Below, piece after piece: positions 38,057 through 64,000 of a DNA stretch of 64,000 nucleotides. The stretch comes from a virus (lineage: Duplodnaviria; Caudoviricetes): positions 5,530-69,529 of IMG/VR virus record IMGVR_UViG_3300021431_000118; one strand, 5' to 3'. The notes beneath the pieces are model-generated. The model was not told where the DNA came from. It saw nothing but the letters and a program-made list of their open reading frames with translations, and made no database searches. How positions within the stretch are numbered: the first letter of the stretch is position 1; each line of letters begins with the position of its first letter. Made by a program: the position numbers and the translations under genes.

Positions 38057-38112
38057 AAGAACAACTATGAACAATAACAGAAAACAACAATACAACGGAG
38101 GTGAGCGAACAT

Positions 38113-49982: not shown

Positions 49983-50087
49983 CCGGGACAGAAAATTATA
50001 AGACAAAAGACTGGCTCCGGTGTTTCAGCAGAACGCCGGAGGCCTCGTCATTTATACCTGTTGAATGAAAGGAATTTTGGAGGCTAT

Positions 50088-51074
50088 ATGAAATTACAAA
50101 TCTTAGTACCTCAGTATAACGAAACAGACGACGTGGTGAAGCCGCTGCTGGACAGCATCGCGCTGCAGCAGAACGTGCCGTTCGAGGAGATCGGTGTGAT
50201 TATCTGCAACGACGGATCGGATATCCATCTGACGGAAGAGTTTCTGAACTCATATCCGTTTCTGGTGGAGTATCATCTGGAGCCGCACCGAGGCGTATCC
50301 GCCACGAGAAACGCATGTCTGGATTATGCCACGGCGGACTACGTCATGTTCTGCGACGCAGACGACATGTTCTACAACGCATGCGGGCTGTGGATTCTAT
50401 TCCGGGAAATGGAGACAGGGTTCGACTCCATGATCTCCGCCTTTACGGAGGAGACGCGGGATATCAACACGGGCGGTGTTGCCTATGTCAACCACGATCA
50501 GGACAGCACTTTTGTACACGGAAAGGTACACCGCAGAAAATATCTGCTGGACTACGGCATCCGGTTCAACGACGAGCTGACGATTCACGAGGACAGCTAC
50601 TTCAACATCCTGTGCCAGAATCTGAGCAAAAACGTGAAGTACTGCCAGACGCCGTTCTATCTTTGGAAATGGCGGGACAACAGCGTCTGCCGGCACGACC
50701 CGAAGTACATTCTGAAAACTTACCGGAACATGCTGGACTCCAACGACAGCCTGGTGGACGAGTTCCTGCGCAGAGGCGTCAACGACAAGGCGATGTTCTA
50801 TCTGGCGTTCATGGTATTTGACGCGTACTACACGATGAACAAACCGGAATGGATCGATCAGGAGAACAAGGAGTACCGTGACAGTACGGAACGCCGGTTC
50901 GCAGACTACTATGTGAAGCATAAGAAAATGTGGGACAGCATCGCAGACAACGACAAGATGCAAATCTCCAACATGGTACGCAGCAGAAGCGTCATGGAGG
51001 GAATGCGGATGGAGTCCACTACCATCGAGGCATGGCTCCGGCATGTGAAGAAGCTGGCCTCCAAAAAGAAATGA
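50088..51074 (+). CDS. Glycosyltransferase family 2
   Basis: ILVPQYN, ICNDGS, GVSATRN, FCDADD (DxD), IHED..F. Start set at ATG 50088 after GGAGG. Confidence 0.92.
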   Translation: MKLQILVPQYNETDDVVKPLLDSIALQQNVPFEEIGVIICNDGSDIHLTEEFLNSYPFLVEYHLEPHRGVSATRNACLDYATADYVMFCDADDMFYNACGLWILFREMETGFDSMISAFTEETRDINTGGVAYVNHDQDSTFVHGKVHRRKYLLDYGIRFNDELTIHEDSYFNILCQNLSKNVKYCQTPFYLWKWRDNSVCRHDPKYILKTYRNMLDSNDSLVDEFLRRGVNDKAMFYLAFMVFDAYYTMNKPEWIDQENKEYRDSTERRFADYYVKHKKMWDSIADNDKMQISNMVRSRSVMEGMRMESTTIEAWLRHVKKLASKKK

Positions 51075-51101
51075 TATAGAAAACAATAAGGGGGGGATTA
51101 G

Positions 51102-51566
51102 ATGATCACGATAATTCCCGGTGGAATTACGAACGAATATTTCGGTCCTTCCACCGAAGACAAGCCTTCGGTACACGTGCCGAACGGCAGTACATTCTAC
51201 GAATTCGATACGGTCAAACTCTACGTCTACGACGCCGACCTCAATGAGTGGATAGAACAGGAGTTTGACAACGGCGGCGGCGATGTGCCGGCGGCTACCG
51301 CAATGCTGAAGGATACAGACGTGACAGTATACAAGGAAGACTGGGAAGAGGATCCGGACGGCGTCAGCGCGGCGTTCCCCTATCGCGCTCCGGTTGAGCT
51401 TGCCGGTGTGACGGAGGACATGTTCTCGACCGTGGTGTTCGGCGTGGACGATGCCTGTAGCGGGAACTTTGCGCCGGTTGCAAAGAGCGACGACGACGCG
51501 GTGTATATCTACGCCGCGGAGGTACCGGAGAACGATCTCACCATTCTGTCCGTTGTCGCGTGGTAA
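51102..51566 (+). CDS. Two-module small fibre-associated protein
   Basis: N-module like 49794-49982. C-module (W...PYRA.V.L.GVT...YIYA..P..LT) resembles the C-terminus of 37247-38056. Confidence 0.75.
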   Translation: MITIIPGGITNEYFGPSTEDKPSVHVPNGSTFYEFDTVKLYVYDADLNEWIEQEFDNGGGDVPAATAMLKDTDVTVYKEDWEEDPDGVSAAFPYRAPVELAGVTEDMFSTVVFGVDDACSGNFAPVAKSDDDAVYIYAAEVPENDLTILSVVAW

Positions 51567-51578
51567 GGAGGAGATCCT

Positions 51579-51749
51579 ATGTTTGGAAACACAAATGTGG
51601 CTGCCGGAAAAGACGGCAACGCCATGAAGTTTGGAGATCCGACGAAGGACTGGGCTAATGTCGGGCAGGCGGACTATATGATTATCACCGGGACGCAGGG
51701 CGCGTATGTCGACCAGGCGGTCACCGACAACGAAGTCATCCTTGAGTGA
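51579..51749 (+). CDS. 56-aa protein missing from the ORF track
   Basis: Strong SD AAGGAGGAG, fills the intergenic gap, MFGNTNVAAGKDG...VGQADY...EVILE*. Confidence 0.65.
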   Translation: MFGNTNVAAGKDGNAMKFGDPTKDWANVGQADYMIITGTQGAYVDQAVTDNEVILE

Positions 51750-51781
51750 CGGATCACCTTATCGATAAGGAGGTTATGAAT

Positions 51782-53887
51782 ATGGCTTTTGAAAAGAAAG
51801 TCTGGCTCGGCGGCGATACCGTAACCGCTGCGCATCTGAATCGAATTGAGAACGGAATCATGGAGGCGATGGAAAGCGGAGGTTCCGGCGCAGGCGAGGC
51901 TGTACTGCCAGACTGGAACGAGAACGATCCGACGTCAGCGGCGTATATTCGGAACAGGCCGTTCTATAAATCTGGTTCGGCGACTGTATTATATCAAAAC
52001 AGCGCATTTTTGATGGCAACGGAAATGGGTAGCTGGGTTGGCGGAACGGACCTAAATGCAGAAATCCCGGCTGGGCTGTATGACGGAATGCCTGTTACCG
52101 TTACCGTTGACGGGGAGTCTGAGGAATTAACATTTGCTTATTATTCAAATTCTACACCAGCCTGCTATGGAGCCGGACAGCCATCACAAAATCGTTTCGG
52201 TATAGCATTTTATCCTGTAGACAGCGCTACATCCGGTCAATCATATGGTCGTGGTTTTGAACTGATGGATTTTCAAAACAAGACATCGAAAACTGTTAAT
52301 GTGTCCGTTGTCAGCGGTTCAGTCAACGTGGTCAAGATTCCGGCAGAGTTTCTCGACATTCCTGACGACGTTGTGGTTGCCGGCGAAGGCACTGGCTCTA
52401 CTGTACAGGGGCTTGTCGGCACAGAAGACCCGGCAAATAGCAACAGTGCGACTGGTGATTATGCGCATGCTGAGGGCGGGTTCGTTTCCACAAACGCAAG
52501 CACCGGTGTGACGACATATTATAAAAACACAGCATCAGGTCAATCCTCTCACGCCGAAGGACAGAGCACAACTGCCAGCGGCGCTGTGTCTCACGCTGAA
52601 GGCGCCCATACAATAGCCAGCGGCGGTCAGTCCCACGCCGAAGGGGTACACACAACCGCCAGCGGTAATCAGTCTCATGCCGAAGGCGTCAGCACAACCG
52701 CCAGCGGCGGTCAGTCCCACGCCGAAGGCCTTGGTGGCACATTTACCATTAACAACACTACATATACAAGCGGCGCAAAAGGGACGGCTGACCACACAGA
52801 GGGTTACCAGACGCTGACGGAAAGCGGTCAACCTGGTAACCATGCCGAAGGCTACCAGACCAGGGCGACTGGCGGCGCGGCGCATGCAGAGGGTTACGTG
52901 ACACACGCAAGCGGTACAAACTCTCACGCGGAGGGCAACGGTACAACTGCCAGTGGCGCGATGTCTCACGCTGAAGGTAATGGCACAACCGCCAGCGGCG
53001 CGATATCTCACGCAGAGGGCTTTGGTGGCACATTTACCATTAACAACACTACATATGCAAGCGGCGCAAAAGGGACTGCTGACCACACAGAGGGATATCA
53101 GACTCTGACCGCTGCAGTGGAAGGAGAAGGCACTCAGGGCAATCACGCTGAGGGTTATCATACTCAGGCGACCGGTGGAGCGGCTCACGCCGAAGGCGGC
53201 GGCACAACCGCCAATGGTATCAGGTCTCACGCCGAAGGCAGTTACACAACCGCCAGCGGTAATGATTCTCACGCCGAAGGCGCCAGTACAACCGCCAGCG
53301 GCGGTCAGTCCCACGCCGAAGGGGTACAAACAACCGCCAGCGGCGGAGTGTCTCACGCTGAAGGTATGAGTACGACTGCAAGCGCATCATATTCACATGC
53401 AGAAGGACTTTCGACACAGGCTAAAAAAGAGGCTTCACATGTGGAAGGCGCTTACACAACTGCAAATGGGGCGCAGTCACACGCAGAAGGCAACGGCACA
53501 AACGCCGACGGCGCGCAGTCTCACGCTGAAGGTGTCGGCACAACCGCCAGCGGCCAAGCTTCTCACGCCGAAGGCAGTTATACAACCGCCAGCGGCAGCG
53601 CTTCTCACGCTGAAGGCGCTTACACAACCGCGAATCACGCCTCTCAGCATGTCTTCGGTGAAAATAACGTTGAGGACCCATCAACAGCTAACGCCAACGC
53701 TCGCGGTACTTACGTTGAAATTGTCGGAAATGGTACGAGCAGCGATGCAAAGTCCAACGCCCGCACCCTTGATTGGGACGGCAACGAAACTTTAGCCGGC
53801 AGCCTCACGCTCGGCAAAGGGACGGCTGACGAAGTTACCGTCACCGCCGCTCAGCTCAAACAGCTGATCGCCATGCTCTCGGCGTGA
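51782..53887 (+). CDS. YadA-head-like (SHAEG repeat) fibre protein 2
   Basis: About 25 SHAEG-type repeats. N-terminal W..G..V.A..LN.IE.GI and DWNENDPTSAAYI modules. Start 8 nt after AAGGAGG. Confidence 0.8.
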   Translation: MAFEKKVWLGGDTVTAAHLNRIENGIMEAMESGGSGAGEAVLPDWNENDPTSAAYIRNRPFYKSGSATVLYQNSAFLMATEMGSWVGGTDLNAEIPAGLYDGMPVTVTVDGESEELTFAYYSNSTPACYGAGQPSQNRFGIAFYPVDSATSGQSYGRGFELMDFQNKTSKTVNVSVVSGSVNVVKIPAEFLDIPDDVVVAGEGTGSTVQGLVGTEDPANSNSATGDYAHAEGGFVSTNASTGVTTYYKNTASGQSSHAEGQSTTASGAVSHAEGAHTIASGGQSHAEGVHTTASGNQSHAEGVSTTASGGQSHAEGLGGTFTINNTTYTSGAKGTADHTEGYQTLTESGQPGNHAEGYQTRATGGAAHAEGYVTHASGTNSHAEGNGTTASGAMSHAEGNGTTASGAISHAEGFGGTFTINNTTYASGAKGTADHTEGYQTLTAAVEGEGTQGNHAEGYHTQATGGAAHAEGGGTTANGIRSHAEGSYTTASGNDSHAEGASTTASGGQSHAEGVQTTASGGVSHAEGMSTTASASYSHAEGLSTQAKKEASHVEGAYTTANGAQSHAEGNGTNADGAQSHAEGVGTTASGQASHAEGSYTTASGSASHAEGAYTTANHASQHVFGENNVEDPSTANANARGTYVEIVGNGTSSDAKSNARTLDWDGNETLAGSLTLGKGTADEVTVTAAQLKQLIAMLSA

Positions 53888-53931
53888 TGTGAACATGAAT
53901 AAAAGTATTATTTGAAAAGGAGGCGATGAAA

Positions 53932-55467
53932 GTGCCAGAAAAGGTTTCCATAACCAAGAAGAAGCTCGATGATCTGGCGAACGCCGTAGCGGCAAAGAGC
54001 GCCTTTCCTGTATGCATGACGGTTGATAAAATGACATCAGCCGTCCTCGGTTTGAAAGTAAAGGAAGACCTGCAGATGCAGGAGAAGACGGTGACGCCGA
54101 CTAAAGACGGGGTGACCGTGCTGCCGGATGAAGGGTACGACGGGCTGGCGAAAGTGACGGTTGAACCTTATCCGAATGAGGCAGATGTATTGATTGAGAA
54201 GATGTTTACGTCGTATGAGAATTCGACCGTGAGAAACATTGGAGCTTACGCGTTTTGCAATTGTGAATCGCTCCGCTTTATATCATTCCCTGCCTGTACG
54301 AGTATTGGAAGTAGCGCGTTTCAATACTGCTACAGTCTCACGGACGTCAGCTTCCCTGCCTGTACGAGTATTGGGAACTACGCGTTTTACTCCTGCCGCA
54401 GTCTCACGGCAGCCAGCTTCCCTGCCTGTACGAGTATTGGGGACTACGCGTTTAACTTATGCTCCAACCTCACAAGCGTCAGCTTCCCTGCCTGTACGAG
54501 TATTGGGAACTACGCGTTTAACTTATGCACTAACCTCACGGCAGCCAGCTTCCCTGCCTGTACGAGTATTGGGGACTACGCGTTTCACTTATGCTCCAAC
54601 CTCACAAGCGTCAGCTTCCCTGCCTGTACGAGTATTGGGAACTACGCGTTTTGCTCCTGCTACAGTCTCACGGCAGCCAGCTTCCCAGTTTGCGCGACAA
54701 TTGGAAGTAGCGCGTTTCAATACTGCTACAGTCTCACGGACATCAGCTTCCCTGCCTGCACGAGTATTTGGAACTACGCGTTTTACTCCTGCCGCAGTCT
54801 CACGGCAGCCAGCTTCCCAGTTTGCGCGACAATTGGGAACTACGCGTTTAACTTATGCTTTAACCTCACGGCCGTCAGCTTCCCTGCCTGCACGAGTATT
54901 GGAAGCTACGCATTTTATAATTGCTACAGCCTCATGACCACTGATTTCTCAGCATGCCAAAATATTGGAAGTTCTGCATTTCTGAATTGCTATAACATCA
55001 CAAGTGCCAACTTCCCTGTCTGTACGAGCATCTGGAATAACGCGTTTCAAAATTGCTCCAATCTAACGAGTGTTAGCTTCCCCGTCTGTATGAGTATTGG
55101 GCCCAGTGCATTTCAAAGTTGCATCAACCTCACGACTGCCGAGTTCCCTGCCTGCAAAAATATCGGGAGCTTCGTATTTCAATCTTGCCGCAGTCTCACG
55201 ACTGCAAGCTTTCCTGCATGCACGAGTCTTTATAATTGCGCATTCCGCTACTGTTATAATCTTGTCAGCCTATATTTGCTTGGCTCTTCTGTTTGTTCAT
55301 TATTATCAGCGGCGAGCTATGTTTTCGGAAGCACACCAATCTACGGGTATTCAGCATCGGCAAAGCGGTATGGCAGTGTGATTGTCCCGGCATCACTACT
55401 TACAGCATACAGGAACGCCACGAACTGGAAGATAATTTCCAGCAGGATCGTCGCGTATGACGGATAA
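53932..55467 (+). CDS. BspA-type LRR protein with a near-perfect repeat array
   Basis: FPACTSIG.YAF..C.SLT..S repeats. Start is likely GTG 53932 (SD spacing); ATG 53926 is possible. Confidence 0.9.
   Translation: MPEKVSITKKKLDDLANAVAAKSAFPVCMTVDKMTSAVLGLKVKEDLQMQEKTVTPTKDGVTVLPDEGYDGLAKVTVEPYPNEADVLIEKMFTSYENSTVRNIGAYAFCNCESLRFISFPACTSIGSSAFQYCYSLTDVSFPACTSIGNYAFYSCRSLTAASFPACTSIGDYAFNLCSNLTSVSFPACTSIGNYAFNLCTNLTAASFPACTSIGDYAFHLCSNLTSVSFPACTSIGNYAFCSCYSLTAASFPVCATIGSSAFQYCYSLTDISFPACTSIWNYAFYSCRSLTAASFPVCATIGNYAFNLCFNLTAVSFPACTSIGSYAFYNCYSLMTTDFSACQNIGSSAFLNCYNITSANFPVCTSIWNNAFQNCSNLTSVSFPVCMSIGPSAFQSCINLTTAEFPACKNIGSFVFQSCRSLTTASFPACTSLYNCAFRYCYNLVSLYLLGSSVCSLLSAASYVFGSTPIYGYSASAKRYGSVIVPASLLTAYRNATNWKIISSRIVAYDG
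54286..55275 (+). repeat. Tandem array of 15 x 66-bp (22-aa) LRR units
   Basis: TTCCCTGCCTGTACGAGTATTGG-type unit start recurs exactly every 66 bp from 54286. The first ten units are near-identical. Confidence 0.95.
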
Positions 55468-55492
55468 CACTAAATAAAAGCGAGGTTTTATT

Positions 55493-58480
55493 ATGAGTTA
55501 TGAAAAACAAACATGGGTTTCGGGTGAGCCTGTTGCGAGCGCGAAGCTCAATCATATGGAGGAAGGGATCCAGCGGGCGATGGAGTTCGGCGTTCAGTCT
55601 GACTGGAACGAGAACGATCCGACGTCGGCGGCATACATCCAGAATAGGATTTGCTATGAGGAAACGACGTCTGAAATACTGTATTCCGGTAGCCAGGCGC
55701 GGTCAACATTGCAGGGGGAGCTCGGTGCTTGTTCTGCACTGACATGTACACTACAGGACACAATAACAATGACAACGGCAGACGTGCTCGAAATTACAAT
55801 TGGAGAAAAAACATTCAGTAACATCGCTCTATCTATTGCTTATAACGACTCTCTTTGGAATTTCGAGCCAAGAATTGGCGGCAAGCTGGATGCGTACGAA
55901 CGTGATGGGATTATTGTTATATTCAAAAAAGAAGCACAGCCGCAGCGTTTTGAGCTTGAATTGAAAGTAGACGATGACCCGGGCGGAGACGGCGTTACAA
56001 TTAAGCGTATTTTTGGCAGCACCGTCCACAAGATCCCGTCGAAGTTTCTCGACATTCCTGACGGCGTTGTGGTTGCCGGCGAAGGTACCGGGTCTACCGT
56101 TCAGGGACTAATCGGTAACGTTAACCCAGCAAACAACAATCAGGCAACCGGCGATTATGCGCATGTCGAAGGCGGTGATGTTTACACAAACTCCCAAACG
56201 AGTGAAAAGACGTATTATCCGAATACCGCATCTGGGGTAGCGTCTCACGCCGAAGGCAGTTACACAACTGCCAGCGGCATTCATTCTCACGCCGAAGGCG
56301 CCAGTACAACTGCCAGCGGCGGTCAGTCCCACGCCGAAGGGGTACAAACAACCGCCAGCGGCACTCAGTCTCACGCCGAAGGTTACTGCACAACCGCCAG
56401 CAACTACCAATCTCACGCTGAAGGTGCCAGCACAACCGCCAGCGGCGAGGCGTCTCACGCCGAAGGGCAGAACACAACCGCCAGCGACCAAGCTTCTCAC
56501 GCAGAAGGCGACCACACAACCGCCAGCGGCAGTCAGTCCCACGCAGAAGGTAGCAGCACAACCGCCAGCGGCACTCAGTCTCACGCCGAAGGCTATGGCG
56601 GGACATACACTCTCAACGGCACTACCTACACAAGCGGCGCTATCGGAATGGCTGACCACACGGAAGGTTATCAGACGTTGACAGCAAGCGGCCAGCCGGG
56701 CAACCACGCTGAAGGTTATCAGACGCGGGCAACAGGTGGAGCGGCTCATGCAGAGGGTTCCGCGACACACGCAAGCGGATCACAATCTCACGCTGAAGGA
56801 AACAGCACGACTGCAAGTGGTTCTATTTCTCACGCTGAAGGCGTCAACACAACCGCCAGCGGCAATCAATCACACGCCGAAGGTGCCGGCACAACCGCCA
56901 GCGGTGTGAACTCTCACGCTGAAGGATCTGGCGGTACATTTACAATACAGGATACGACCTATACAAGCGGCGCAACCTCTTCCTGTGCACATTCTGAGGG
57001 TTATCAAACACTCGCGGGAAATGACAATGCTCATGCAGAGGGATATCATACTTTAGCCAGCGGTCAGGACTCTCACGCGGAAGGTGCGGCAACAATCGCC
57101 AGCGGATCAAATTCTCACGCGGAAGGTGCGAGCACAACCGCAAGCGGATCAACTTCTCACGCGGAAGGTGCGAGCACAATCGCCAGCGTGGCTCAGTCAC
57201 ACGCAGAAGGTTACTACACAACCGCCAGCGGCTACCAATCTCACGCCGAAGGTACACACACGACTGCCAGCGGTCAAGCATCTCACGCCGAAGGCTGCCA
57301 AACGATTTCCAATCACGCCTCTCAGCATGTCTTCGGTGAATACAATATAGCTGATCCTTCTACTGCGGCAGCAGATCAACGTGGTACGTACGTTGAGATC
57401 GTTGGTAACGGAACGTATGATTCCCGCTCCAACGCCCGCACCCTCGATTGGTCGGGCAACGAGGTTCTCGCAGGAAAGCTTACCGTTGGCGCAGCACCTA
57501 CCGCAGATATGGACGTTGCTACGAAGAAGTATGTGGATGACAACGCAGGAGGAGCGAGTGTTGTTATTGCCGGGGAAGGCGTCGGGTCGACAAAACAGGG
57601 ACTGGTTGAACCGGATGTTAACCATCCGGAAGTTGATTGGACTAATATAACATTTAACACGGCATCAGGGAACTATGCTCATGTTGAAGGCGGGCGGGCA
57701 AATTATTATTATGACGAGGATACAGGCACCACAGATGCGAATATTCTGAGTAATACAGCATCAGGTGTTGGGTCTCATGCTGAAGGTAGCGGCACTACCG
57801 CAAGTGCCAATGAATCCCATGCAGAAGGTGCCGGCACCACAGCAAGCGGTCATCAATCTCACGCTGAAGGTCAGAGTACAACCGCCAGCGGTCAAGCATC
57901 TCACGCCGAAGGCTACCAAACCACCGCCAGAGGCGAAAACTCTCATGCTGAGGGTAGTAGTACGGAAGCTAATGAGACTGATTCTCACGCAGAAGGTTCA
58001 GGTTCTATTGCCTCCGGTAGTGCTGCCCACGCTGAAGGAGATTATACAACCGCCAGCGGTAATGATTCTCACGCCGAAGGCGCCAGTACAACCGCCAGCG
58101 GAAATTGCTCCCATGCGGAAGGCTACGGCACAACCGCAAGCAGCGCCGGTTCACACGCTGAAGGCGAGGAGACCATCGCCAGCGGCGAGCAGTCGCATGC
58201 GGAGGGCTACGGTACAACCGCCAATGGTGCCCAACAGCATGTTTTTGGCAAGTACAACGTTGTGGACAGTTCCGTATCGTCTCAAAATCTGAATGGCACC
58301 TACGTCGAAATCGTTGGAAACGGCACCGACAGCGCTCGTTCCAACGCACGTACCCTCGACTGGAACGGAAATGAGGTTCTCGCAGGTGGTCTGACCGTCG
58401 GAGCTGCCGGTATCACCATCGGGAGCACGACGATCACGGAAGCGCAGTTGACGGCATTGCTGGCGATGCTGAACGCGTAA
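55493..58480 (+). CDS. YadA-head-like (SHAEG repeat) fibre protein 3
   Basis: Same modules as fibre 2, with two head blocks. Confidence 0.8.
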   Translation: MSYEKQTWVSGEPVASAKLNHMEEGIQRAMEFGVQSDWNENDPTSAAYIQNRICYEETTSEILYSGSQARSTLQGELGACSALTCTLQDTITMTTADVLEITIGEKTFSNIALSIAYNDSLWNFEPRIGGKLDAYERDGIIVIFKKEAQPQRFELELKVDDDPGGDGVTIKRIFGSTVHKIPSKFLDIPDGVVVAGEGTGSTVQGLIGNVNPANNNQATGDYAHVEGGDVYTNSQTSEKTYYPNTASGVASHAEGSYTTASGIHSHAEGASTTASGGQSHAEGVQTTASGTQSHAEGYCTTASNYQSHAEGASTTASGEASHAEGQNTTASDQASHAEGDHTTASGSQSHAEGSSTTASGTQSHAEGYGGTYTLNGTTYTSGAIGMADHTEGYQTLTASGQPGNHAEGYQTRATGGAAHAEGSATHASGSQSHAEGNSTTASGSISHAEGVNTTASGNQSHAEGAGTTASGVNSHAEGSGGTFTIQDTTYTSGATSSCAHSEGYQTLAGNDNAHAEGYHTLASGQDSHAEGAATIASGSNSHAEGASTTASGSTSHAEGASTIASVAQSHAEGYYTTASGYQSHAEGTHTTASGQASHAEGCQTISNHASQHVFGEYNIADPSTAAADQRGTYVEIVGNGTYDSRSNARTLDWSGNEVLAGKLTVGAAPTADMDVATKKYVDDNAGGASVVIAGEGVGSTKQGLVEPDVNHPEVDWTNITFNTASGNYAHVEGGRANYYYDEDTGTTDANILSNTASGVGSHAEGSGTTASANESHAEGAGTTASGHQSHAEGQSTTASGQASHAEGYQTTARGENSHAEGSSTEANETDSHAEGSGSIASGSAAHAEGDYTTASGNDSHAEGASTTASGNCSHAEGYGTTASSAGSHAEGEETIASGEQSHAEGYGTTANGAQQHVFGKYNVVDSSVSSQNLNGTYVEIVGNGTDSARSNARTLDWNGNEVLAGGLTVGAAGITIGSTTITEAQLTALLAMLNA

Positions 58481-58552
58481 AGCAAATATTGAATTGACAG
58501 GCCTCCGGTGTAACAGCCGGAGGTCGATTACATCTACAAGGGGGTGTAATGA

Positions 58553-59689
58553 GTGACGAAGAACGAAGCTATTGAAATGGTACTGAACACGGCACGCAAT
58601 GAAATCGGGTATCACGAAAAGGCAAGCAACTCTAACCTCGACAGCAAGACTGCGAACAGCGGGTCCGGGAACTGGACGAAGTACGCACGTGATCTTAACA
58701 ATACCTCTACCCTGAATGGGGACAAAAATAGTTTTCCATGGTGCGCTGTGTTCTGCATCTGGGACTTTACCAAAGTATTCGGAGAAGAAACAGCACGTCA
58801 GCTTCTCTGCCTTCCGCAGTACAGCTCCGGAGCCGGCTGCCTTTATGAAGTGCAGTACTATAAGCAAGCCGGTCAGTGGCGCACTGACCCTGAGCCTGGC
58901 GATCAAATCTTCTTTTCATATTCAGCCGGCGAAGTCAGCCACACCGGTATCGTAGAGTCCGTCGCCAACGGCATGGTCAACACGATCGAGGGCAACACCT
59001 CCGACATGGTAGCACGCAGACGCTATCCCCTGTCGAGCGGCTCTATCGTTGGATACGGCAGGCCGAGATGGGAAGTTGTGGCTGATCTCGACGCCGGCAG
59101 CATCGCGGCTCCCGTTGTGGAGGAACCAGCTGCTTCCATCCCCACGGCGGAAGAGAACGCCCAGATCCTTGTGAAGGGGTGCAAGGGCGAGAACGTGCGG
59201 AAGCTCCAGGAAGACCTGATCAAGCTGGGGTACGACGTCGGTGTATGGGGCGCGGACGGAGACTTCGGTACGGCAACGTATTATGCTGTCAAGAAGTATC
59301 AGCAGGATCATGATCTGGATGTGGACGGCGATGTCGGCCCGCTCACAAAGGCGTCCATGAAGGTCGCACTGGCGGCTCTGGGTGCACTGGACGCCGCCGA
59401 CGCAGAGACAGAGAATCTCATCGCGGGAATCCAGGTCGCGGAAGCGGACAAGCCTGCGGTTCACACAGCGGCTGCACAGTATCGCATCGGGGATGTCGTG
59501 ATGTTCGCAGGCAACGCGCATTACTTCAGCCCGGCGGCAAAGCTCGGACTTGCATGCAGGCCGGGCAAGGCGATCGTCCGCGCGGTCAAGGATGGCGCGA
59601 AGCATCCGTACCGGCTGATGGCTGTGCGCGGAGGAGGTTCCACGGTGAACGGCTGGGTTGACGCCGGCACTGTACAGGCGGTGAGTTAA
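58553..59689 (+). CDS. Endolysin: CHAP/NlpC-P60 domain, PG-binding domain and C-terminal cell-wall-binding domain
   Basis: PWCAVF (Cys), SHTGIV (His), IEGNTS, V..LQ..L..LGY..DG.FG..T..AV..YQ....L.VDG.VG. Confidence 0.92.
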   Translation: MTKNEAIEMVLNTARNEIGYHEKASNSNLDSKTANSGSGNWTKYARDLNNTSTLNGDKNSFPWCAVFCIWDFTKVFGEETARQLLCLPQYSSGAGCLYEVQYYKQAGQWRTDPEPGDQIFFSYSAGEVSHTGIVESVANGMVNTIEGNTSDMVARRRYPLSSGSIVGYGRPRWEVVADLDAGSIAAPVVEEPAASIPTAEENAQILVKGCKGENVRKLQEDLIKLGYDVGVWGADGDFGTATYYAVKKYQQDHDLDVDGDVGPLTKASMKVALAALGALDAADAETENLIAGIQVAEADKPAVHTAAAQYRIGDVVMFAGNAHYFSPAAKLGLACRPGKAIVRAVKDGAKHPYRLMAVRGGGSTVNGWVDAGTVQAVS

Positions 59690-59691
59690 AG

Positions 59692-60015
59692 GTGAAGAAG
59701 ACTCCAAAGAAGCGCAGAGAGTTCTCGAAGATCATGGCGATCATCGCGATCACCATGTGGATCTTCGTGAATCTTTTCGGAATGGCGATGGTAATCTTTA
59801 CACTGGATACATCGCCGCTGATGTATGTGATCCCGAGCGTAGACGCCGTGGTGGCGATTGTGCTGGGGCACTATTACTGGAAGGCTAAGGCTGAAAACCA
59901 GATCAAGCTGAAGAAGCTGTATGACACGGAAGTCGGCTGTGAGCCGGATGAAGAGATGTACACAAGGTCTGCGACGAACGACAGGCCACTGTACGAGAAT
60001 TCAAATATTGTGTAA
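59692..60015 (+). CDS. Two-TM membrane protein (holin-like)
   Basis: Two hydrophobic segments; lysis cassette position. Confidence 0.6.
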   Translation: MKKTPKKRREFSKIMAIIAITMWIFVNLFGMAMVIFTLDTSPLMYVIPSVDAVVAIVLGHYYWKAKAENQIKLKKLYDTEVGCEPDEEMYTRSATNDRPLYENSNIV

Positions 60016-60030
60016 AAAAGGAGAATCGTT

Positions 60031-60333
60031 ATGGTTATTGACATGACACAGGTAATCGTTGCGCTGATCGGTCTGATCGGCGTGCTGCTGTCCACTGTAC
60101 TCATCCCCTACGTCAAGGCGAAGACCACAAAGGAGAAGTGGGATAACGCCATGTTCTGGGTAAAGCTCGCCGTGCAGAGCGCCGAGCAGATTTACGCCGA
60201 GCAGGGTATGGGAGAAAAGAAGAAGGCGTATGTCGAGAAGTTCCTGGCTGAGCATAACATCAAGCTCGATGCGGAGCAGATCGACGTGGCGATTGAAGCC
60301 GCCGTTCTTCAGCTGCAGGAAGCCGTTGCCTGA
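60031..60333 (+). CDS. Holin (LL-H-like)
   Basis: One N-terminal TM, then AVQSAEQ...G..KK.YV..FL...QID.AIEAAV. Confidence 0.8.
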   Translation: MVIDMTQVIVALIGLIGVLLSTVLIPYVKAKTTKEKWDNAMFWVKLAVQSAEQIYAEQGMGEKKKAYVEKFLAEHNIKLDAEQIDVAIEAAVLQLQEAVA

Positions 60334-60357
60334 TCTTTCTGAAAGGAGGTTTGCATC

Positions 60358-60819
60358 ATGGATGTTCTCATGAATGCAACCATCGGGCAGCTTGTTGGCG
60401 GCGGTCTCGGGATCGTCGCCATCCTGTCTATATTTATTGAGTTCACGCCGATCAAGCTTAATCCGGTATCCGCGATCCTGAACTGGATCGGGAGACGCAC
60501 CAACCGGGAATTATTTTCGAAGATGGATGAACTCGAACGGCAAGTGAATATTATTGGAGATAATCAGAAGAAGCTGGAAGATCAGGCCGAGGAACGGGAC
60601 GCGATCAACTGCCGTATCAGGATCCTCGGATTTGCGGACGAACTGCGGACGCATACGAAGCACTCACAGGAAAGTTTTGAGCAGGTGCTGGAGGATATCG
60701 ACGTGTACGAGAAATACTGCGACAGTCATCCGGAATTCAAGAACAACAGGACTGTGAGAGCGAAAGAGAGAATCAAAACAACCTACGACAGATGTATGGC
60801 GCAGGACGATTTCCTGTAA
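60358..60819 (+). CDS. Membrane-anchored holin/antiholin-like protein
   Basis: N-terminal TM, coiled coil, R.RIL.FADE..H..E.F..Y..YC..HP.FKNN. Confidence 0.6.
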   Translation: MDVLMNATIGQLVGGGLGIVAILSIFIEFTPIKLNPVSAILNWIGRRTNRELFSKMDELERQVNIIGDNQKKLEDQAEERDAINCRIRILGFADELRTHTKHSQESFEQVLEDIDVYEKYCDSHPEFKNNRTVRAKERIKTTYDRCMAQDDFL

Positions 60820-60837
60820 GATATGGAGGGACTGTAA

Positions 60838-61092
60838 ATGTACAGAATCATGCTGGTGAAATCGAAAAGGGATAACAACGCCTCCCTTTATCAGTGGCTG
60901 CTGACGGAGCAGACCTCTGAGACAGACGGCGGGACCGTCACGGAAAAAGTCCCGATGGAGTTTGAGACCGAGGTAGAACTCGACGAACAGGTCGAGCGCA
61001 TGCTGAACGAGGAAGACTATGCGAAATCTGATTTCATCGTGGTCAAGTACGTCGATTACAGAATCGACGCCACGGATTACGACATCACCTGA
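60838..61092 (+). CDS. Acidic hypothetical protein
   Basis: SD GGAGGG; last gene of the + strand operon. Confidence 0.75.
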   Translation: MYRIMLVKSKRDNNASLYQWLLTEQTSETDGGTVTEKVPMEFETEVELDEQVERMLNEEDYAKSDFIVVKYVDYRIDATDYDIT

Positions 61093-61100
61093 TACTATGT

Positions 61101-61132
61101 AAGGCACTCTTGAGCGAGTGCCTTATTTTTTT
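61101..61132 (+). terminator. Intrinsic terminator of the late operon
   Basis: AAGGCACTC-TTGAGC-GAGTGCCTT then A and T7. Confidence 0.85.
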
Positions 61133-61197
61133 AGCGCTGTGCCGGCAGGGCTCAACGCTGCTGCGTTTTGTGCGTCTGGAGGTATCAGCGGAAGGGT

Positions 61198-61244
61198 AAA
61201 AAAAAGACCCCGTAGAACGCTTCAGATTGCGTTATACGAGGTCT
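61198..61244 (-). terminator. Intrinsic terminator downstream of the integrase
   Basis: Bulged stem AGACC-CGTA-AACGC/GCGTT-TACG-GGTCT preceded by A8 on + (U8 on -). Confidence 0.6.
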
Positions 61245-61366
61245 GAGTTATATTCACAGCTTAACGGTGAATAAGCATTTTAACTTTATCGAAGTTAATA
61301 TACAGAATTTAAGTTAGCGTTTATTTTATTAAACATTAATGCCTGTTTTGTTTGTAATAATTGACA

Positions 61367-62557
61367 TTACGCCAGAATGTCCGGGATTGTATCCAGCGCC
61401 TTTGCCTTCTGCTCTCGCATGACATGGATGTATGTGTTGTAGGTGATGGAGACGTCTGCGTGTCCGAGGAGGGAGCTCACGGTCTTGATGTCAATACCGT
61501 TTGAGAGCAGCAGTGTGGCGAAGGTGTGACGCAGAGCGTGGACGCCGTAAATCTTGTCTTCCGGCAACCCTGTCGCTACAGCGATACGGCGGAACATCTG
61601 ATCGAGCTGGCGCGGCTTGACCTGGGTATGCTCGGAGGTTGTCATGACATAAGTCTCGTTACCGGTTACTTGATAAATATCAAGGAGTGCGGCGTAGGCG
61701 TTGTCGTTCAGAGGAATGGTGCGATCCTGCCCGGCGTCGGACTTGACGGTCTCCTGCTCCAGGAGCTTGTAGCCTTTGTCCTTGTCACGGTCGCGGACGA
61801 AGACGATGTTGTTATGGACTTTCAATGTCCGGTTTTCAAAGTCAATATCCGTTCCCCATTTCAGGGCGAGCAGCTCGCCCATGCGGAGGCCGGTATTTAT
61901 CAGGAGCGGAACGAAGGCGCCGAGGGGATAGCGGCGCTTGCCATTGCCCCATTTGCTGTAGGCCTGGGTAATCAGAGCGGTGGCCTCGTCTTTGGTGTAG
62001 AACGGAATCTGCTTCTGTGCGAAGAGCTTGCGGCTGGGGACGATAACATTTGCAGCCGGGTTCTTCTTTACTTTGGGAGGCTCACAGCGGAGTCCCCATT
62101 TGAACGCGGCATTTACCGCATCATACGCTTTCTTAATCGTGGAGTAAGATTTGCCTTCATCTTTCAGCTTTGCAAGCATCTGTTGTATGTCGTCGCTCGT
62201 GACGGTGGAAAGTTGAATTTCGCCGAGAGATGGTTTGACATACAGGCTAATGGTCTGTTCAAGTCGGTCATAGCTTTTTGGTTTAAGCTCAAGAATTTTG
62301 ACAGTTGTCATCCAGAGATCAAGATATGCCGCGAAGCTCTCTTTGTTGACGTACACATACTCAGTCTTAACTGATTCCAGGTAAATCTCTTTCAGTCTCT
62401 TATGGGCTTCCGGCTCGGATTTGCAATAGACAACTTTGTAGTCTGGTTTGCCGTTAGGTTTCTGTCCAATCTTCAGACGCCCGACCCATCTCTGATCGGA
62501 GCTGCGGAAGTAAACAGAGCCTGTGCCGTGTTCGTGTTTCTTTTTCGCTGTCGCCAT
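61367..62557 (-). CDS. int: Phage integrase (tyrosine recombinase with arm-binding N-terminus)
   Basis: GTGSVYFR..D.RW arm domain, NTGLRMGEL, HALRHTFAT, LLGH...ITYNTY. Confidence 0.95.
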   Translation of the reverse strand: MATAKKKHEHGTGSVYFRSSDQRWVGRLKIGQKPNGKPDYKVVYCKSEPEAHKRLKEIYLESVKTEYVYVNKESFAAYLDLWMTTVKILELKPKSYDRLEQTISLYVKPSLGEIQLSTVTSDDIQQMLAKLKDEGKSYSTIKKAYDAVNAAFKWGLRCEPPKVKKNPAANVIVPSRKLFAQKQIPFYTKDEATALITQAYSKWGNGKRRYPLGAFVPLLINTGLRMGELLALKWGTDIDFENRTLKVHNNIVFVRDRDKDKGYKLLEQETVKSDAGQDRTIPLNDNAYAALLDIYQVTGNETYVMTTSEHTQVKPRQLDQMFRRIAVATGLPEDKIYGVHALRHTFATLLLSNGIDIKTVSSLLGHADVSITYNTYIHVMREQKAKALDTIPDILA

Positions 62558-62651
62558 AATTTAACCTCCTTGCATATGTAGCATATTCGGGCGGTAAATG
62601 TAGCAAAGTGAGAGTGTTAATTTTGCAAAACTTGTTCACATTTGAATATAA

Positions 62652-62680
62652 ATTATAGCGACATTTTTTGGAAACGTCAA
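62652..62680 (-). promoter_or_regulatory. sigmaA/sigma70 promoter of the integrase
   Basis: On the - strand: TTGACG-17 nt-TATAAT. Confidence 0.85.
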
Positions 62681-62711
62681 TATATACGGAAAAAGTTTGT
62701 GCAATTAGAAC

Positions 62712-62742
62712 AAAAAATCCCACCCGAAACGGGTGGGATTTT
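62712..62742 (-). terminator. Terminator after the tRNA 3' half
   Basis: 13-bp stem AAAATCCCACCCG/CGGGTGGGATTTT with a 3-nt loop; A-run on +. Confidence 0.85.
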
Positions 62743-62751
62743 AGAGATTAT

Positions 62752-62796
62752 TGGCAGGGGAAGAAGGCTTCGAACCCTCGGCCTACGGTTTTGGAG
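62752..62796 (-). tRNA. 3' half of tRNA-Trp(CCA), the attP core; not a complete tRNA
   Basis: The - strand reads CTCCAAA-ACCGT-AGGCC-GAGGG-TTCGAAG-CCTTC-TTCCCCT-G-CCA: anticodon loop, T-arm, G73 and CCA. The 5' half is absent. Confidence 0.88.
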
Positions 62797-62882
62797 CCTG
62801 AAGGCCGGTCGCTCAATTCGTCAGTAAACATTGGGCAATTCAGCGGTCATTCTCCAAAATGTAGTAAAAATGTAGCAAAAAT

Positions 62883-63065
62883 TTAAACCGTGTAGCATCT
62901 GCCAGTGTAGCGATTCAGCCACTCGTCGAAGCGTTCCGGTTTTACATACATCCTGCTTCCGATCTTAATGGTCGGGAATGTACTCATGTGCATCAGCTGA
63001 TAGGCGCGGTTGATTCCACAGCCTATGATAGCAGATATGTCTTTCGCTGTCAATAATCTCTGCAT
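62883..63065 (-). CDS. xis: Excisionase / HTH_17-like recombination directionality factor
   Basis: LLTAKDISAIIGCG.NRAYQLM...FPTIKIG.R.YV....FDEWL, next to attP. Confidence 0.82.
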   Translation of the reverse strand: MQRLLTAKDISAIIGCGINRAYQLMHMSTFPTIKIGSRMYVKPERFDEWLNRYTGRCYTV

Positions 63066-63247: not shown

Positions 63248-64000
63248 TCAGTCTCCCTGATGCTTGAGCAGATACTTGCGGGAGACGTTCTTGAAGGAGT
63301 CCTTGCCGTCCAGGCTGCGGTAGACGATTCCCTCCCTGTCGACAGCCGGATTGACGACGGACTTGCCGTCAGCCTGCAGCTTCAGTTCTTCCATAGTATC
63401 CGGCATCATGGCCTCGCCGAGAATCGGCACCCATTTCATGCCCCAGGATTCGATGATCTCCTTGCCTGCGCAGGAGGAGAAGCGTCCGTTGACTGAGTCG
63501 ATCAGGTTGAAGACATAGAGGTCATCCTCCGGCAGCTTCAGTGGATTGCCCTGCACGGAGCCGACGCCCTCGCCCTGAATGCAGACCCACTCCAGGGTCT
63601 CCCCCATCTCCAGGTAGTCACGGAGATGCTTCTCGATATCGTACTTGAAGGCGAGATCCCAATAGATATTGTGATCGTGGTAGCACGCCTGCTTTTCGTC
63701 CTGCTGACGGACGTTGCGGGAGCAGACGTAGAACTCATACTTCTGCTTCTGGAAGCAGTTCTTGGTCAGACGGCGGAGACAGTAGGTACAACTCGTTCCG
63801 TCGAGCTTCTCTGTGGCAAGGTAGACCCGACCGTCACCAATGCGCCAGGGCTGATTCTCGACCCTTTCCTCGTCAGTCTTCTTGATGAAGCTCGGGAATT
63901 CTCTCGGCTTATCCTGCTTCTTCCCGAAGAATACGAACAGCAGCTTCTTGCCCCACTCCCGGCGCATCAGCCAGCGGAAGGGCTTGGTCTTGAACAGCTT
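63248..64000 (-). CDS. ATP-dependent RNA ligase (Rnl2-like), 5' end beyond the window
   Basis: Nucleotidyltransferase motifs TEKLDG, QGEG, LYVFNL, REGIV, SFKNVS. The frame is open to the window edge. Confidence 0.85.
   Translation of the reverse strand, partial: KLFKTKPFRWLMRREWGKKLLFVFFGKKQDKPREFPSFIKKTDEERVENQPWRIGDGRVYLATEKLDGTSCTYCLRRLTKNCFQKQKYEFYVCSRNVRQQDEKQACYHDHNIYWDLAFKYDIEKHLRDYLEMGETLEWVCIQGEGVGSVQGNPLKLPEDDLYVFNLIDSVNGRFSSCAGKEIIESWGMKWVPILGEAMMPDTMEELKLQADGKSVVNPAVDREGIVYRSLDGKDSFKNVSRKYLLKHQGD

Follow-up and report, generated by a model that had tools for sequence, protein, structure and literature searches.

Organization of the locus

The window analysed here is a 64,000-nucleotide stretch (positions 5,530 to 69,529) of the viral record IMGVR_UViG_3300021431_000118, an SPbeta-like phage from animal gut metagenomes of 69.5 kb (69,529 bases), with a CheckV completeness estimate of 59% and a TerL that is 44% identical to those of SPbeta-like Bacillus phages. 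All of its genes are on the + strand, where TerL is followed in turn by a 2844-aa tape measure protein (16535-25069), a DUF6558 tail protein, BppU_N, two LRR_5 proteins in addition to the one described here, three phrog_25468 fibres (47005, 51746, and 55493), a CHAP endolysin (58553), and a holin (60031). The leucine-rich repeat (LRR) gene falls in this late operon, after the tape measure and before the lysis genes, with gaps of 38 nt (5′) and 25 nt (3′) to the neighbouring fibre genes. The features at the locus are as follows.

51746..53887, + strand: upstream fibre gene, 713 aa, with 42-bp SHAEG..TTASG repeats (phrog_25468, E 5e-63; weak YadA_head match; TRF)
53916..53923, + strand: Shine-Dalgarno-like AAAGGAGG, read from the sequence, within the 38-nt gap after the upstream fibre gene
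53926..55467, + strand: coding sequence, 513 aa, BspA-type LRR protein of the phage tail module (ORF list, Pfam, PHROG, AF2)
53926..54219, + strand: N-terminal non-LRR module, aa 1-98 (AF2 secondary structure, pLDDT 40-88)
54220..54285, + strand: unit 0, the first LRR unit, which has diverged from the others at 36-43 of 66 nt
54286..54879, + strand: units 1-9, the young part of the array (pairwise differences 1-25 nt of 66; pS 0.293)
54403..54666, + strand: recent tandem duplication of two units (132 bp), offset from the unit register
54880..55275, + strand: units 10-15, the older part of the array (pairwise differences 21-37 nt of 66; pS 0.803)
55276..55467, + strand: C-terminal cap, aa 451-513, comprising the last strand and helices 489-497 and 499-507 (AF2)
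55493..58480, + strand: downstream fibre gene, 995 aa, paralogue of the upstream fibre (phrog_25468, E 1e-109; YadA_head, E 5.5e-14)

The true start of the LRR gene may be GTG 53932, because the GGAGG motif ends only 2 nt before ATG 53926. The N-terminal module consists of two helices, placed by AF2 at residues 11-25 and 33-42, a motif of ~35 residues (aa ~48-86, TVTP..P..GYDGL..VTV), and an N-cap. Residues 1-100 are matched by 2390 representative proteins at E ≤ 1e-3, mostly on aa 48-86, and the ESM Atlas returned no usable match to these N-terminal 100 residues. When 26 relatives of the module were compared with Pfam, one each matched Kelch, Big_3, Ig, and LRR_5 and 22 matched no family, while 3 of 20 match PHROG tail or virion-structural families (P0124, P0138, and P0184).

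The LRR protein is part of the tail-fibre/receptor-binding gene block of an SPbeta-like temperate siphophage of a gut Firmicute. Here, the N-terminal module probably attaches the protein to the virion, and the solenoid of ~16 turns would serve as an adhesin, with its ligand on the host cell or on a gut surface. A protein of this type could also be lysogenic-conversion cargo, working as a BspA-like adhesin on the surface of the lysogen and not as a part of the virion, given that the PDB neighbours are annotated as cell-surface proteins and that bacterial members of the BspA-type LRR class typically serve as surface adhesins (available portion of PMC2843621). We regard this as quite improbable, since the N-terminus has no hydrophobic signal-peptide-like stretch or anchor and is predicted to form helices instead, the N-terminal module recurs in proteins matching PHROG tail or virion-structural families, and the gene is tightly set on the late strand with a fibre gene on either side. 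The two flanking gaps gave no match to a promoter or a terminator, which likewise led us to reject an independent moron cassette. A weak LRR-like tail-module ORF has been described in a vibriophage (available portion of PMC10945359), and our literature search returned no study testing a phage LRR_5 tail protein in the virion or in receptor binding; in PMC12750041, ‘LRR’ denotes LRRK2.

Fold and family of the LRR protein

Repeat units of the BspA-type/TpLRR class are 22-23 residues long and are built on the framework LxxLxLxxCxxIxxxAFxxCxxL. The protein matches Pfam LRR_5 (PF13306) in four stretches (E 2.2e-85, 283.4 bits vs a cut-off of 27.7) and phrog_18805 (E 7e-30). The AF2 model (pLDDT 91.4, pTM 0.80) places in each unit one 3-residue strand at positions 20-22, the main strand by DSSP, and one 2-residue strand at positions 6-7. 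The top Foldseek match in the PDB is 4fs7 (E 3.8e-12, TM (target) 0.69), and ranks 1-10 are all BspA-type LRRs, including 4fdw, 4gt6, 4fd0, PcpA (4cp6), 4h09, and TpLRR (6mlx), while the BFVD matches are phage ‘BspA family / leucine-rich repeat’ proteins. The ORF at 53926-55467 is an ordinary BspA-type (LRR_5 / TpLRR-class) leucine-rich repeat solenoid. With 4fs7, 4gt6, 4h09, PcpA 4cp6, and TpLRR 6mlx it shares the 22-23-residue unit, the framework FPxCxxIGxxAFxxCxxLxxxx, the solenoid fold, and the variable positions. Unlike its bacterial counterparts, however, its gene belongs to a phage tail module; a secretion signal is not visible in the protein, and a phage-type N-terminal module replaces the bacterial anchor.

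Within the window, the two other LRR_5 genes are 27-31% identical to this one at the protein level, and their products have caps that are 33-37% identical to its own. LRR_5 proteins of uncultured gut Caudoviricetes (such as BFVD A0A8S5T478 and A0A6J5NXB1; NatCom_3357, PV036416.1) have the same fold and belong to the same family, at <60% identity to this protein and with no function described in their records; in NatCom_3357, the matching genes lie between Dit/tail genes and holin/endolysin. The best of 7452 protein matches has 43% identity at 97% coverage or 57% at 53% coverage, and the 38 phage records matched by tblastn are all <60% identical. Among metagenome contigs, the best of 6 loci is 54% identical over its best segment, the best of 4 loci in genome contigs is 41% identical, and viral contigs yielded 0 relatives. 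Across proteins and viral, metagenome, and genome contigs, the search returned no close orthologue above 54-57% identity.

Anatomy of the repeat array

Read in 66-base steps, the window carries 15 in-frame units of 66 bp (22 aa) at 54286-55275. TRF reports a period of 66 for the array (9.8 copies, 78% matches, score 690), together with periods of 132 (85% matches) and 264. F1, C4, F12, and C15 are present in 15/15 units, and I/L7 and L/I18 are conserved; the two Cys per unit noticed earlier are thus C4 and C15 throughout. The earlier note had described 66-bp units composed of interchangeable sub-blocks, and all of the blocks it listed occur as written: FPACTSIG or FPVCATIG in the A block, SSAFQYCYSL, NYAFYSCRSL, or DYAFNLCSNL in the B block, and TDVS, TAAS, or TSVS in the C block. 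Its likening of units 1-2 to units 7-8 and of unit 3 to unit 5 also agrees with the alignment, where unit 1 differs from unit 7 at 8 nt of 66, unit 2 from unit 8 at 2, and unit 3 from unit 5 at 1. The concentration of change at a few codons stands as well, and the codon sets given for codons 9, 13, and 16 are correct. Variation is concentrated at codons 9, 10, 13, 14, 16, 17, 20, and 21 of the 22-codon unit, and in units 1-9 these 8/22 codons account for 286 of the 343 summed non-synonymous differences.

The variable positions of the array are the usual variable positions of the LRR_5 subfamily. Across 41 homologues, the unit has the consensus FPxCTxIGxxAFxxCxxLTxxS, and per-position entropy in the 15 units rises and falls with that in 900 units drawn from 120 homologues (Spearman 0.81, p = 6e-6). 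For 100 homologues, chosen by similarity to a repeat-rich query, the likeness of the units was compared: mean inter-unit identity reaches or exceeds the query's 0.60 in 28 of them, and at least one unit pair at ≥80% identity is present in 40. Because only 2/100 have 8 or more such pairs, as here, the array is among the youngest and most expanded of its subfamily, its 5′ half being unusually young and near-identical relative to BspA-type homologues. TpLRR arrays reportedly lengthen and shorten from one paralogue or isolate to another (available portion of PMC2843621).

Assembly support

Sequencing runs were compared by way of their Logan contigs (k = 31), not their reads. In the holder runs X1 and X3, the contigs stop at 54333 and resume at 54807, with short pieces between and with 54521-54637 lacking contig cover, so that in the middle of the array (~54334-54806), where the k = 31 contigs break, unit order and copy number rest on the assembly. 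These breaks, along with exact in-register repeats of 65, 51, and 49 nt in the array, are what would be expected if part of the pattern were an assembly artefact, the order and number of units 3-9 being a chimeric or collapsed short-read path. We consider such an artefact unlikely: the within-unit block combinations span 40-60 nt and are carried on single X1 contigs identical to the window (54345-54422 and 54393-54506, 0 differences each), and the reading frame stays open through all units. Sub-block mosaicism is therefore independent of the long-range order. Runs X5 and X6 contain relatives that are ~95% identical in the flanks.

Outside the LRR gene, two contig joints (53322>56348 and 56500>53288) link the SHAEG repeats of both fibre genes with sides of 30-35 nt; these were taken as repeat cross-matches.

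Growth and mosaicism of the array

The two parts of the array differ in their degree of divergence: units 1-6 are identical over A-block columns 1-23, and synonymous sites are saturated among units 10-15. The traces of duplication lie out of register with the units. Positions 54403-54519 equal 54535-54651 over 117 nt with a single mismatch at 54454, and in the 15 nt that follow (codons 13-17, unit 4 vs unit 6) 9 positions differ. Identity by shift peaks at 2 units (0.818) and at 6 units (0.833). With respect to exchange, incompatibility is seen in 108 of the 351 informative site pairs, Rmin is 3 or more, and a PHI-like statistic of 0.206 compares with a permuted mean of 0.314 (sd 0.026, p = 0.0018). 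Unequal crossover or short-tract gene conversion between units is the best reading of this mosaicism, and the ‘combinatorial’ look is that of out-of-register 132-bp and 396-bp duplications plus patchy inter-unit exchange. Of the recombinational shuffling plus diversifying selection that had been proposed from the sequence, the first part is upheld by the mosaic units, while the second is not, with dN/dS at ~1.

The array would have been formed as follows. Its 3′ part (units 10-15) is old and its 5′ part (units 1-9) young, the latter having presumably grown by two-unit and six-unit tandem duplications with end points inside units, and then been patched by unequal crossover or short-tract gene conversion among units. 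Invariant framework stretches of 24-40 nt (AGC + FPACTSIG + xYAF) would provide the homology for this exchange, and would therefore bring variable ‘cassettes’ together in differing combinations. The framework codons are subject to strong purifying selection, with the surface codons 9, 10, 13, 14, 16, 17, 20, and 21 drifting or being selected freely, as they are subfamily-wide. Taken as a whole, a BspA-type tail LRR with a young array that arose by duplication and inter-unit exchange is the likely account of the locus. It is improbable that the young half goes further and is a recombination-driven ‘cassette shuffler’, with framework DNA kept identical as homology for frequent unit exchange; if it were, related phages in different guts would differ in unit order and in their codon 13/16 residues, and the phage would possess an RT-independent route to rapid change of tail adhesin specificity.

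Selection at the variable codons

At the 8 variable codons, NG86 dN/dS is 0.92 for units 1-9 and 1.02 for units 1-6, values that fit relaxed constraint and not the diversifying selection suggested earlier. A ratio above 1 is obtained only when framework dS serves as the clock, where dN(var8)/dS(framework) is 0.583/0.276 for units 1-9 and 0.61/0.129 for units 1-6, and we discount it because homogenisation confounds that clock.

Taken at face value, the excess of dN(var8) over dS(framework) would, like the mosaic units, suit a fast-evolving host-range determinant, in which unit shuffling and positive selection at codons 13, 16, and others generate standing receptor-binding diversity between closely related phages via repeat recombination with no dedicated enzyme. 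Differences between samples point the same way: AAC>CAC at 54454 (unit 3 codon 13) separates sample S2 (run X3) from S1, changes at 54520 and 54529 (unit 4 codons 13 and 16) mark the relative in run X6, an X6 contig joint skips 132 bp (54578>54711), and in X5 and X6 5/8 listed within-array differences fall in the 8 variable codons. However, 5/8 is not significantly above the expected 36% (binomial estimate ~0.12), with 40 further differences outside those listed, and short contigs from a relative's array have possibly been placed on the wrong unit. With dN/dS within the variable codons at 0.92-1.02 and the closest orthologues at 54-57% identity, this host-range scenario is doubtful, if the least so of the alternatives. 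Among the youngest duplicates (units 3/5, 2/6, and 2/8), 4 of 6 point differences lie in codons 13 and 16, and each of the three changes that separate samples in units 3-4 is A>N and affects the opening base of codon 13 or 16. This focus could reflect focused diversification and not drift, on numbers too small to tell.

Comparison with programmed diversification systems

Nothing points to a programmed diversity-generating system at this locus. Known targets of diversity-generating retroelements (DGRs) typically have a C-type lectin or Ig fold. Like the DGR targets of the Bordetella phage Mtd type and the tentaclins, the LRR protein belongs to a phage tail module and varies at a few, often NNC, codons, but the record shows no RT, no template repeat, and no adenine specificity, and the fold is a different one. 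The NNC form of codons 9, 13, and 16, together with the A>C, A>T, and A>T changes between samples in units 3-4, could be read as the work of a DGR or another adenine-targeted mutator; the earlier note had seen in the NNC pattern a hint, not a demonstration, of adenine-targeted mutagenesis. Substitution rates per site against the consensus are nevertheless equal at A (0.152), C (0.148), and T (0.146), with G at 0.104, and the variable columns number 6/11 for A, 9/21 for C, 7/15 for G, and 8/19 for T. RVT_1 had 0 matches in the whole 69,529-base record (59% complete by CheckV), with control genomes matched, and a search of the record for a template or second array copy returned the self match only. 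The variable codons include CAA, TTA, ACT, and TTT, and the NNC look arises because the record itself prefers C-ending codons (52-75% for N, D, Y, H, C, F, and S(AGY)). A DGR was rejected on the lack of RVT_1, template copy, and adenine bias, and with an LRR fold in place of the fold of DGR targets, any such mutator is exceedingly unlikely.

Hypervariability in the VLRs of lamprey and hagfish is located on the concave strands. These receptors resemble the protein described here in being LRR solenoids with a conserved framework, variable surface residues, and mosaic-looking units, which had suggested a VLR-like shuffled repertoire. The comparison does not extend to the genes, since this one is complete (an intact 513-aa ORF), the record holds no donor cassette or other copy of the unit DNA, and no reverse transcriptase or deaminase is found among the 47 window ORFs, smaller ones excluded, that were scanned against Pfam. 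The pattern of variation may differ as well, in that 6/8 variable positions (9, 10, 13, 14, 16, and 17) fall outside the main β-strand of the AF2 model as assigned by DSSP, exposure being judged from the strand pattern and general LRR geometry. In Foldseek, VLR hybrids rank far below BspA-type structures. No inverted repeats flank the gene, and the sole inverted pair in 50000-63000 (20 nt, 85% complementary) lies outside it, on which ground an invertible segment or shufflon was rejected.

Implications for gut phage tail proteins

The locus fits normal repeat-protein evolution, with no new mechanism needed, and offers a clean example of it, combining a confident model, an old/young split of the array, and measurable exchange between units. 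BspA-type LRRs are common in the tail modules of gut phages, and none seems to have a tested function. If binding to host or mucus is determined by such arrays, new specificities would come cheaply through repeat recombination.

Gene context and anatomy of the array

The LRR gene lies between two fibre genes of a 69.5-kb IMG/VR virus record (estimated completeness 59%) whose large terminase is ~44% identical to SPbeta-like Bacillus phage terminases. The runs bearing the sequence are animal gut metagenomes.

Features in gene order (coordinates, strand, description)
283-1305, +, tyrosine integrase, first in gene order
1445-1933, +, HU-like DNA-binding gene
between HU-like gene and tape measure, +, large terminase
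16535-25069, +, very long tape measure, 2844 aa
3' of tape measure, +, DUF6558 tail protein, large tail proteins, then BppU_N proteins
38101-44964, +, LRR_5 and DUF6273 protein, 2287 aa
44979-46757, +, LRR_5 and DUF6273 protein, 592 aa
47005-49266, +, first fibre, phrog_25468
50061-51074, +, family-2 glycosyltransferase (GT2), between fibre genes, within the tail-fibre block
51746-53887, +, second fibre, phrog_25468, directly before the LRR gene
38-nt gap between upstream gene and LRR gene, +, Shine-Dalgarno-like AAAGGAGG (sequence reading)
53926-55467, +, LRR ORF, intact, 513 aa
54067-54183, +, ~35-aa motif LQxKTVTPTxxxQxVxPDxGYDGLxxVTVxP (core TVTP..P..GYDGL..VTV), aa 48-86 (homologue matches)
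54220-54285, +, diverged unit 0 (66-base step reading)
55493-58480, +, third fibre, phrog_25468, directly after the LRR gene
3' of third fibre, +, CHAP/PG_binding endolysin, then holin
61367-62557, -, second tyrosine integrase, after holin
63248-63967, -, RNA ligase, near the right end

The three fibre genes are paralogues with weak to good YadA_head matches and 42-bp SHAEG..TTASG repeats, the second and third having a common N-terminus (W..G..V.A..LN..E.GI ... DWNENDPTSAAYI.NR). Because two of the three come right after an LRR_5 gene, the gene order suggests that 'LRR protein + fibre' is a repeated cassette. The 2287-aa and 592-aa proteins belong to the same tail module as the LRR protein, both end in DUF6273 and are just 27-31% identical to it, and Tandem Repeats Finder (TRF) detected no DNA-level tandem repeats in their genes. 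A 189-bp tandem repeat lies within the tape-measure gene (17877-18243), and this single phage record carries two tyrosine integrase genes. No promoter-like or terminator-like sites were matched in the gaps on either side of the LRR gene. GGAGG stands only 2 nt 5' of the ATG at 53926, with a more usual spacing of 8 nt to the GTG at 53932; the true start may be this GTG, two codons downstream.

Read in 66-base steps, the array holds 15 in-frame 22-aa units, from 54286 to 55275, followed by a C-terminal cap; TRF reports periods of 66 (9.8 copies, 78% matches), 132 (85% matches) and 264. The units have an 11+11 internal pseudo-symmetry (F-x-x-C-x-x-I-x-x-x-x / F-x-x-C-x-x-L-x-x-x-x), and a loose unit regex matches in both 11-residue registers. 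All sub-blocks described in the earlier note are found (A, FPACTSIG or FPVCATIG; B, SSAFQYCYSL, NYAFYSCRSL or DYAFNLCSNL; C, TDVS, TAAS or TSVS), and the likeness it saw between units amounts to 8 (1/7), 2 (2/8) and 1 (3/5) nt differences per 66. Its codon series for positions 9, 13 and 16 are correct, as are the two Cys per unit, present in 15 of 15.

Family and fold

The LRR protein matches Pfam LRR_5, the BspA-type LRR, at 283 bits (cut-off 27.7), and also phrog_18805, a phage family without a characterised role. An AlphaFold2 model built from an alignment of 41 homologues has a mean pLDDT of 91.4 and a pTM of 0.80, with lower confidence for the N-terminal 95 residues. Each unit is predicted to form a three-residue strand at positions 20-22 and a two-residue strand at 6-7, so that positions 9, 10, 13, 14, 16 and 17, six of the eight that vary, fall outside the predicted main strand. 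In Foldseek searches of the PDB, ranks 1-10 are exclusively BspA-type LRR structures (4fs7, E 3.8e-12; 4fdw, 4gt6, 4fd0, PcpA 4cp6 and 4h09 chains) and TpLRR 6mlx is rank 13, whereas TLR, LGR and VLR hybrids rank below the BspA-type structures. Among predicted viral structures, the top matches are phage proteins labelled leucine-rich repeat or BspA-family.

Growth of the array and exchange between units

Synonymous divergence (pS) splits the array in two, at 0.293 in units 1-9 and a saturated 0.803 in units 10-15, so an old core is preceded by a young expansion. In-register self-identity peaks at shifts of two (0.818) and six units (0.833). The stretch 54403-54519 equals 54535-54651 but for one base, 54454, and is a 132-bp duplication with end points within units. 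Immediately after it, 15 nt (codons 13-17, unit 4 vs unit 6) hold nine differences and resemble a short patch of conversion. Units 7-9 match units 1-3 apart from the alternative A block FPVCATIG in units 7 and 9, and columns 1-23 are invariant across units 1-6.

The sub-blocks are truly interchangeable, since all four combinations of A type (a/b) and B type (B1/B3) occur (units 1, 7, 3 and 9), 108 of 351 informative site pairs in units 1-9 are incompatible, and a PHI-like statistic for these units is 0.206 vs 0.314 +/- 0.026 over 5000 permutations of site order (p = 0.0018). With unit 10 added p falls below 0.0002; over all 15 units the test is not significant (p = 0.11). The recombinational exchange that the earlier note proposed is supported; its diversifying selection and VLR-like repertoire, and the adenine mutagenesis at which it hinted, are not. 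Unequal crossover and short-tract gene conversion between units would best explain the mixed sub-blocks, with the invariant framework DNA providing the homology for both. Expansion and contraction are already reported for TpLRR arrays (PMC2843621).

Selection at the variable codons

Across units 1-9, dN/dS is 0.03 at framework codons and 0.92 at the eight variable codons (9, 10, 13, 14, 16, 17, 20 and 21), reaching 1.02 at the latter in units 1-6. These values fit relaxed constraint, with no clean sign of positive selection. Taking framework dS as the clock raises the variable-codon ratio to about 2-5, which framework homogenisation would equally give.

Per-position entropy in the 15 units correlates with that in 900 units of 120 homologues (Spearman 0.81, p = 6e-6), and the positions marked x in the homologue consensus are exactly the variable ones of the array. 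Of 100 homologues, 28 reach or exceed the LRR protein in mean inter-unit identity, 40 contain a pair of units at 80% or more, and only two have as many such pairs as the LRR protein (eight). The pattern of variation is thus typical for the subfamily, with the LRR protein at its recently expanded end.

No support was found for a programmed mechanism. The record holds neither a reverse transcriptase nor a second copy of the array DNA, no deaminase was detected among 47 ORFs scanned against Pfam, and inverted repeats are absent around the LRR gene. Substitution rates against the unit consensus are even for A (0.152), C (0.148) and T (0.146) and somewhat lower for G (0.104); variable columns number 6/11 (A), 9/21 (C), 7/15 (G) and 8/19 (T). 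The NNC look of the variable codons follows from the record's preference for C-ending codons (52-75%).

Variation between samples

Four runs of one study contain 84-90% of sampled words and four others 5-12%; the comparison uses k=31 Logan contigs, which break within the array (54334-54806). Contig pieces from run X1 are identical to the window where they map. X3, from a second sample, shows an A>C change at position 54454 that makes unit 3 equal to unit 5; a SNP, a conversion or a 132-bp deletion might each account for it. In X6, a relative, unit 4 has A>T in codon 13 (54520) and again in codon 16 (54529), and a contig joint jumps 132 bp; X6 and a further run, X5, have common changes at codons 9, 10 and 11 of units 13-14. 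Variable codons hold five of the eight within-array differences listed, which is not significant; the comparison comprises 40 more differences beyond these. These data hint at between-sample variation at variable codons and in copy number. Searches of viral, metagenome and genome contigs and of protein matches found no orthologue close enough for proper comparison.

Contigs of X1 and X3 also connect SHAEG repeats of the second fibre gene with those of the third, skipping the LRR gene (53322/56348 and 56500/53288). With sides of 30-35 nt, these joints are probably repeat cross-matches, though they may represent a recombinant without the LRR gene.

N-terminal module and putative role

At E <= 1e-3, 2390 representative proteins have matches to residues 1-100, chiefly through the ~35-aa motif, for which no Pfam or PHROG family was found. 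Among the matches listed, the motif core occurs by regex in 128 of 150 proteins, with at least three copies in 52, and one protein of 1551 aa has 10 copies by regex and 20 HMMER stretches. The motif has the look of an unnamed structural repeat that is widespread in phages. Twenty-six relatives of the module scanned against Pfam comprise one each with Kelch, Big_3, Ig and LRR_5 and 22 family-less proteins; in a PHROG scan, 3 of 20 matched tail or virion-structural families. We found no study on the functional role of BspA-type LRR proteins in phage tails. Modular phage tail proteins usually combine a common attachment module with an exchangeable binding domain; the LRR protein has this layout and is therefore read as a putative virion-borne adhesin. 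The locus encodes a known kind of protein, a BspA-type LRR protein of a gut-phage tail module, and its array is an unusually young example of how repeat arrays ordinarily evolve.
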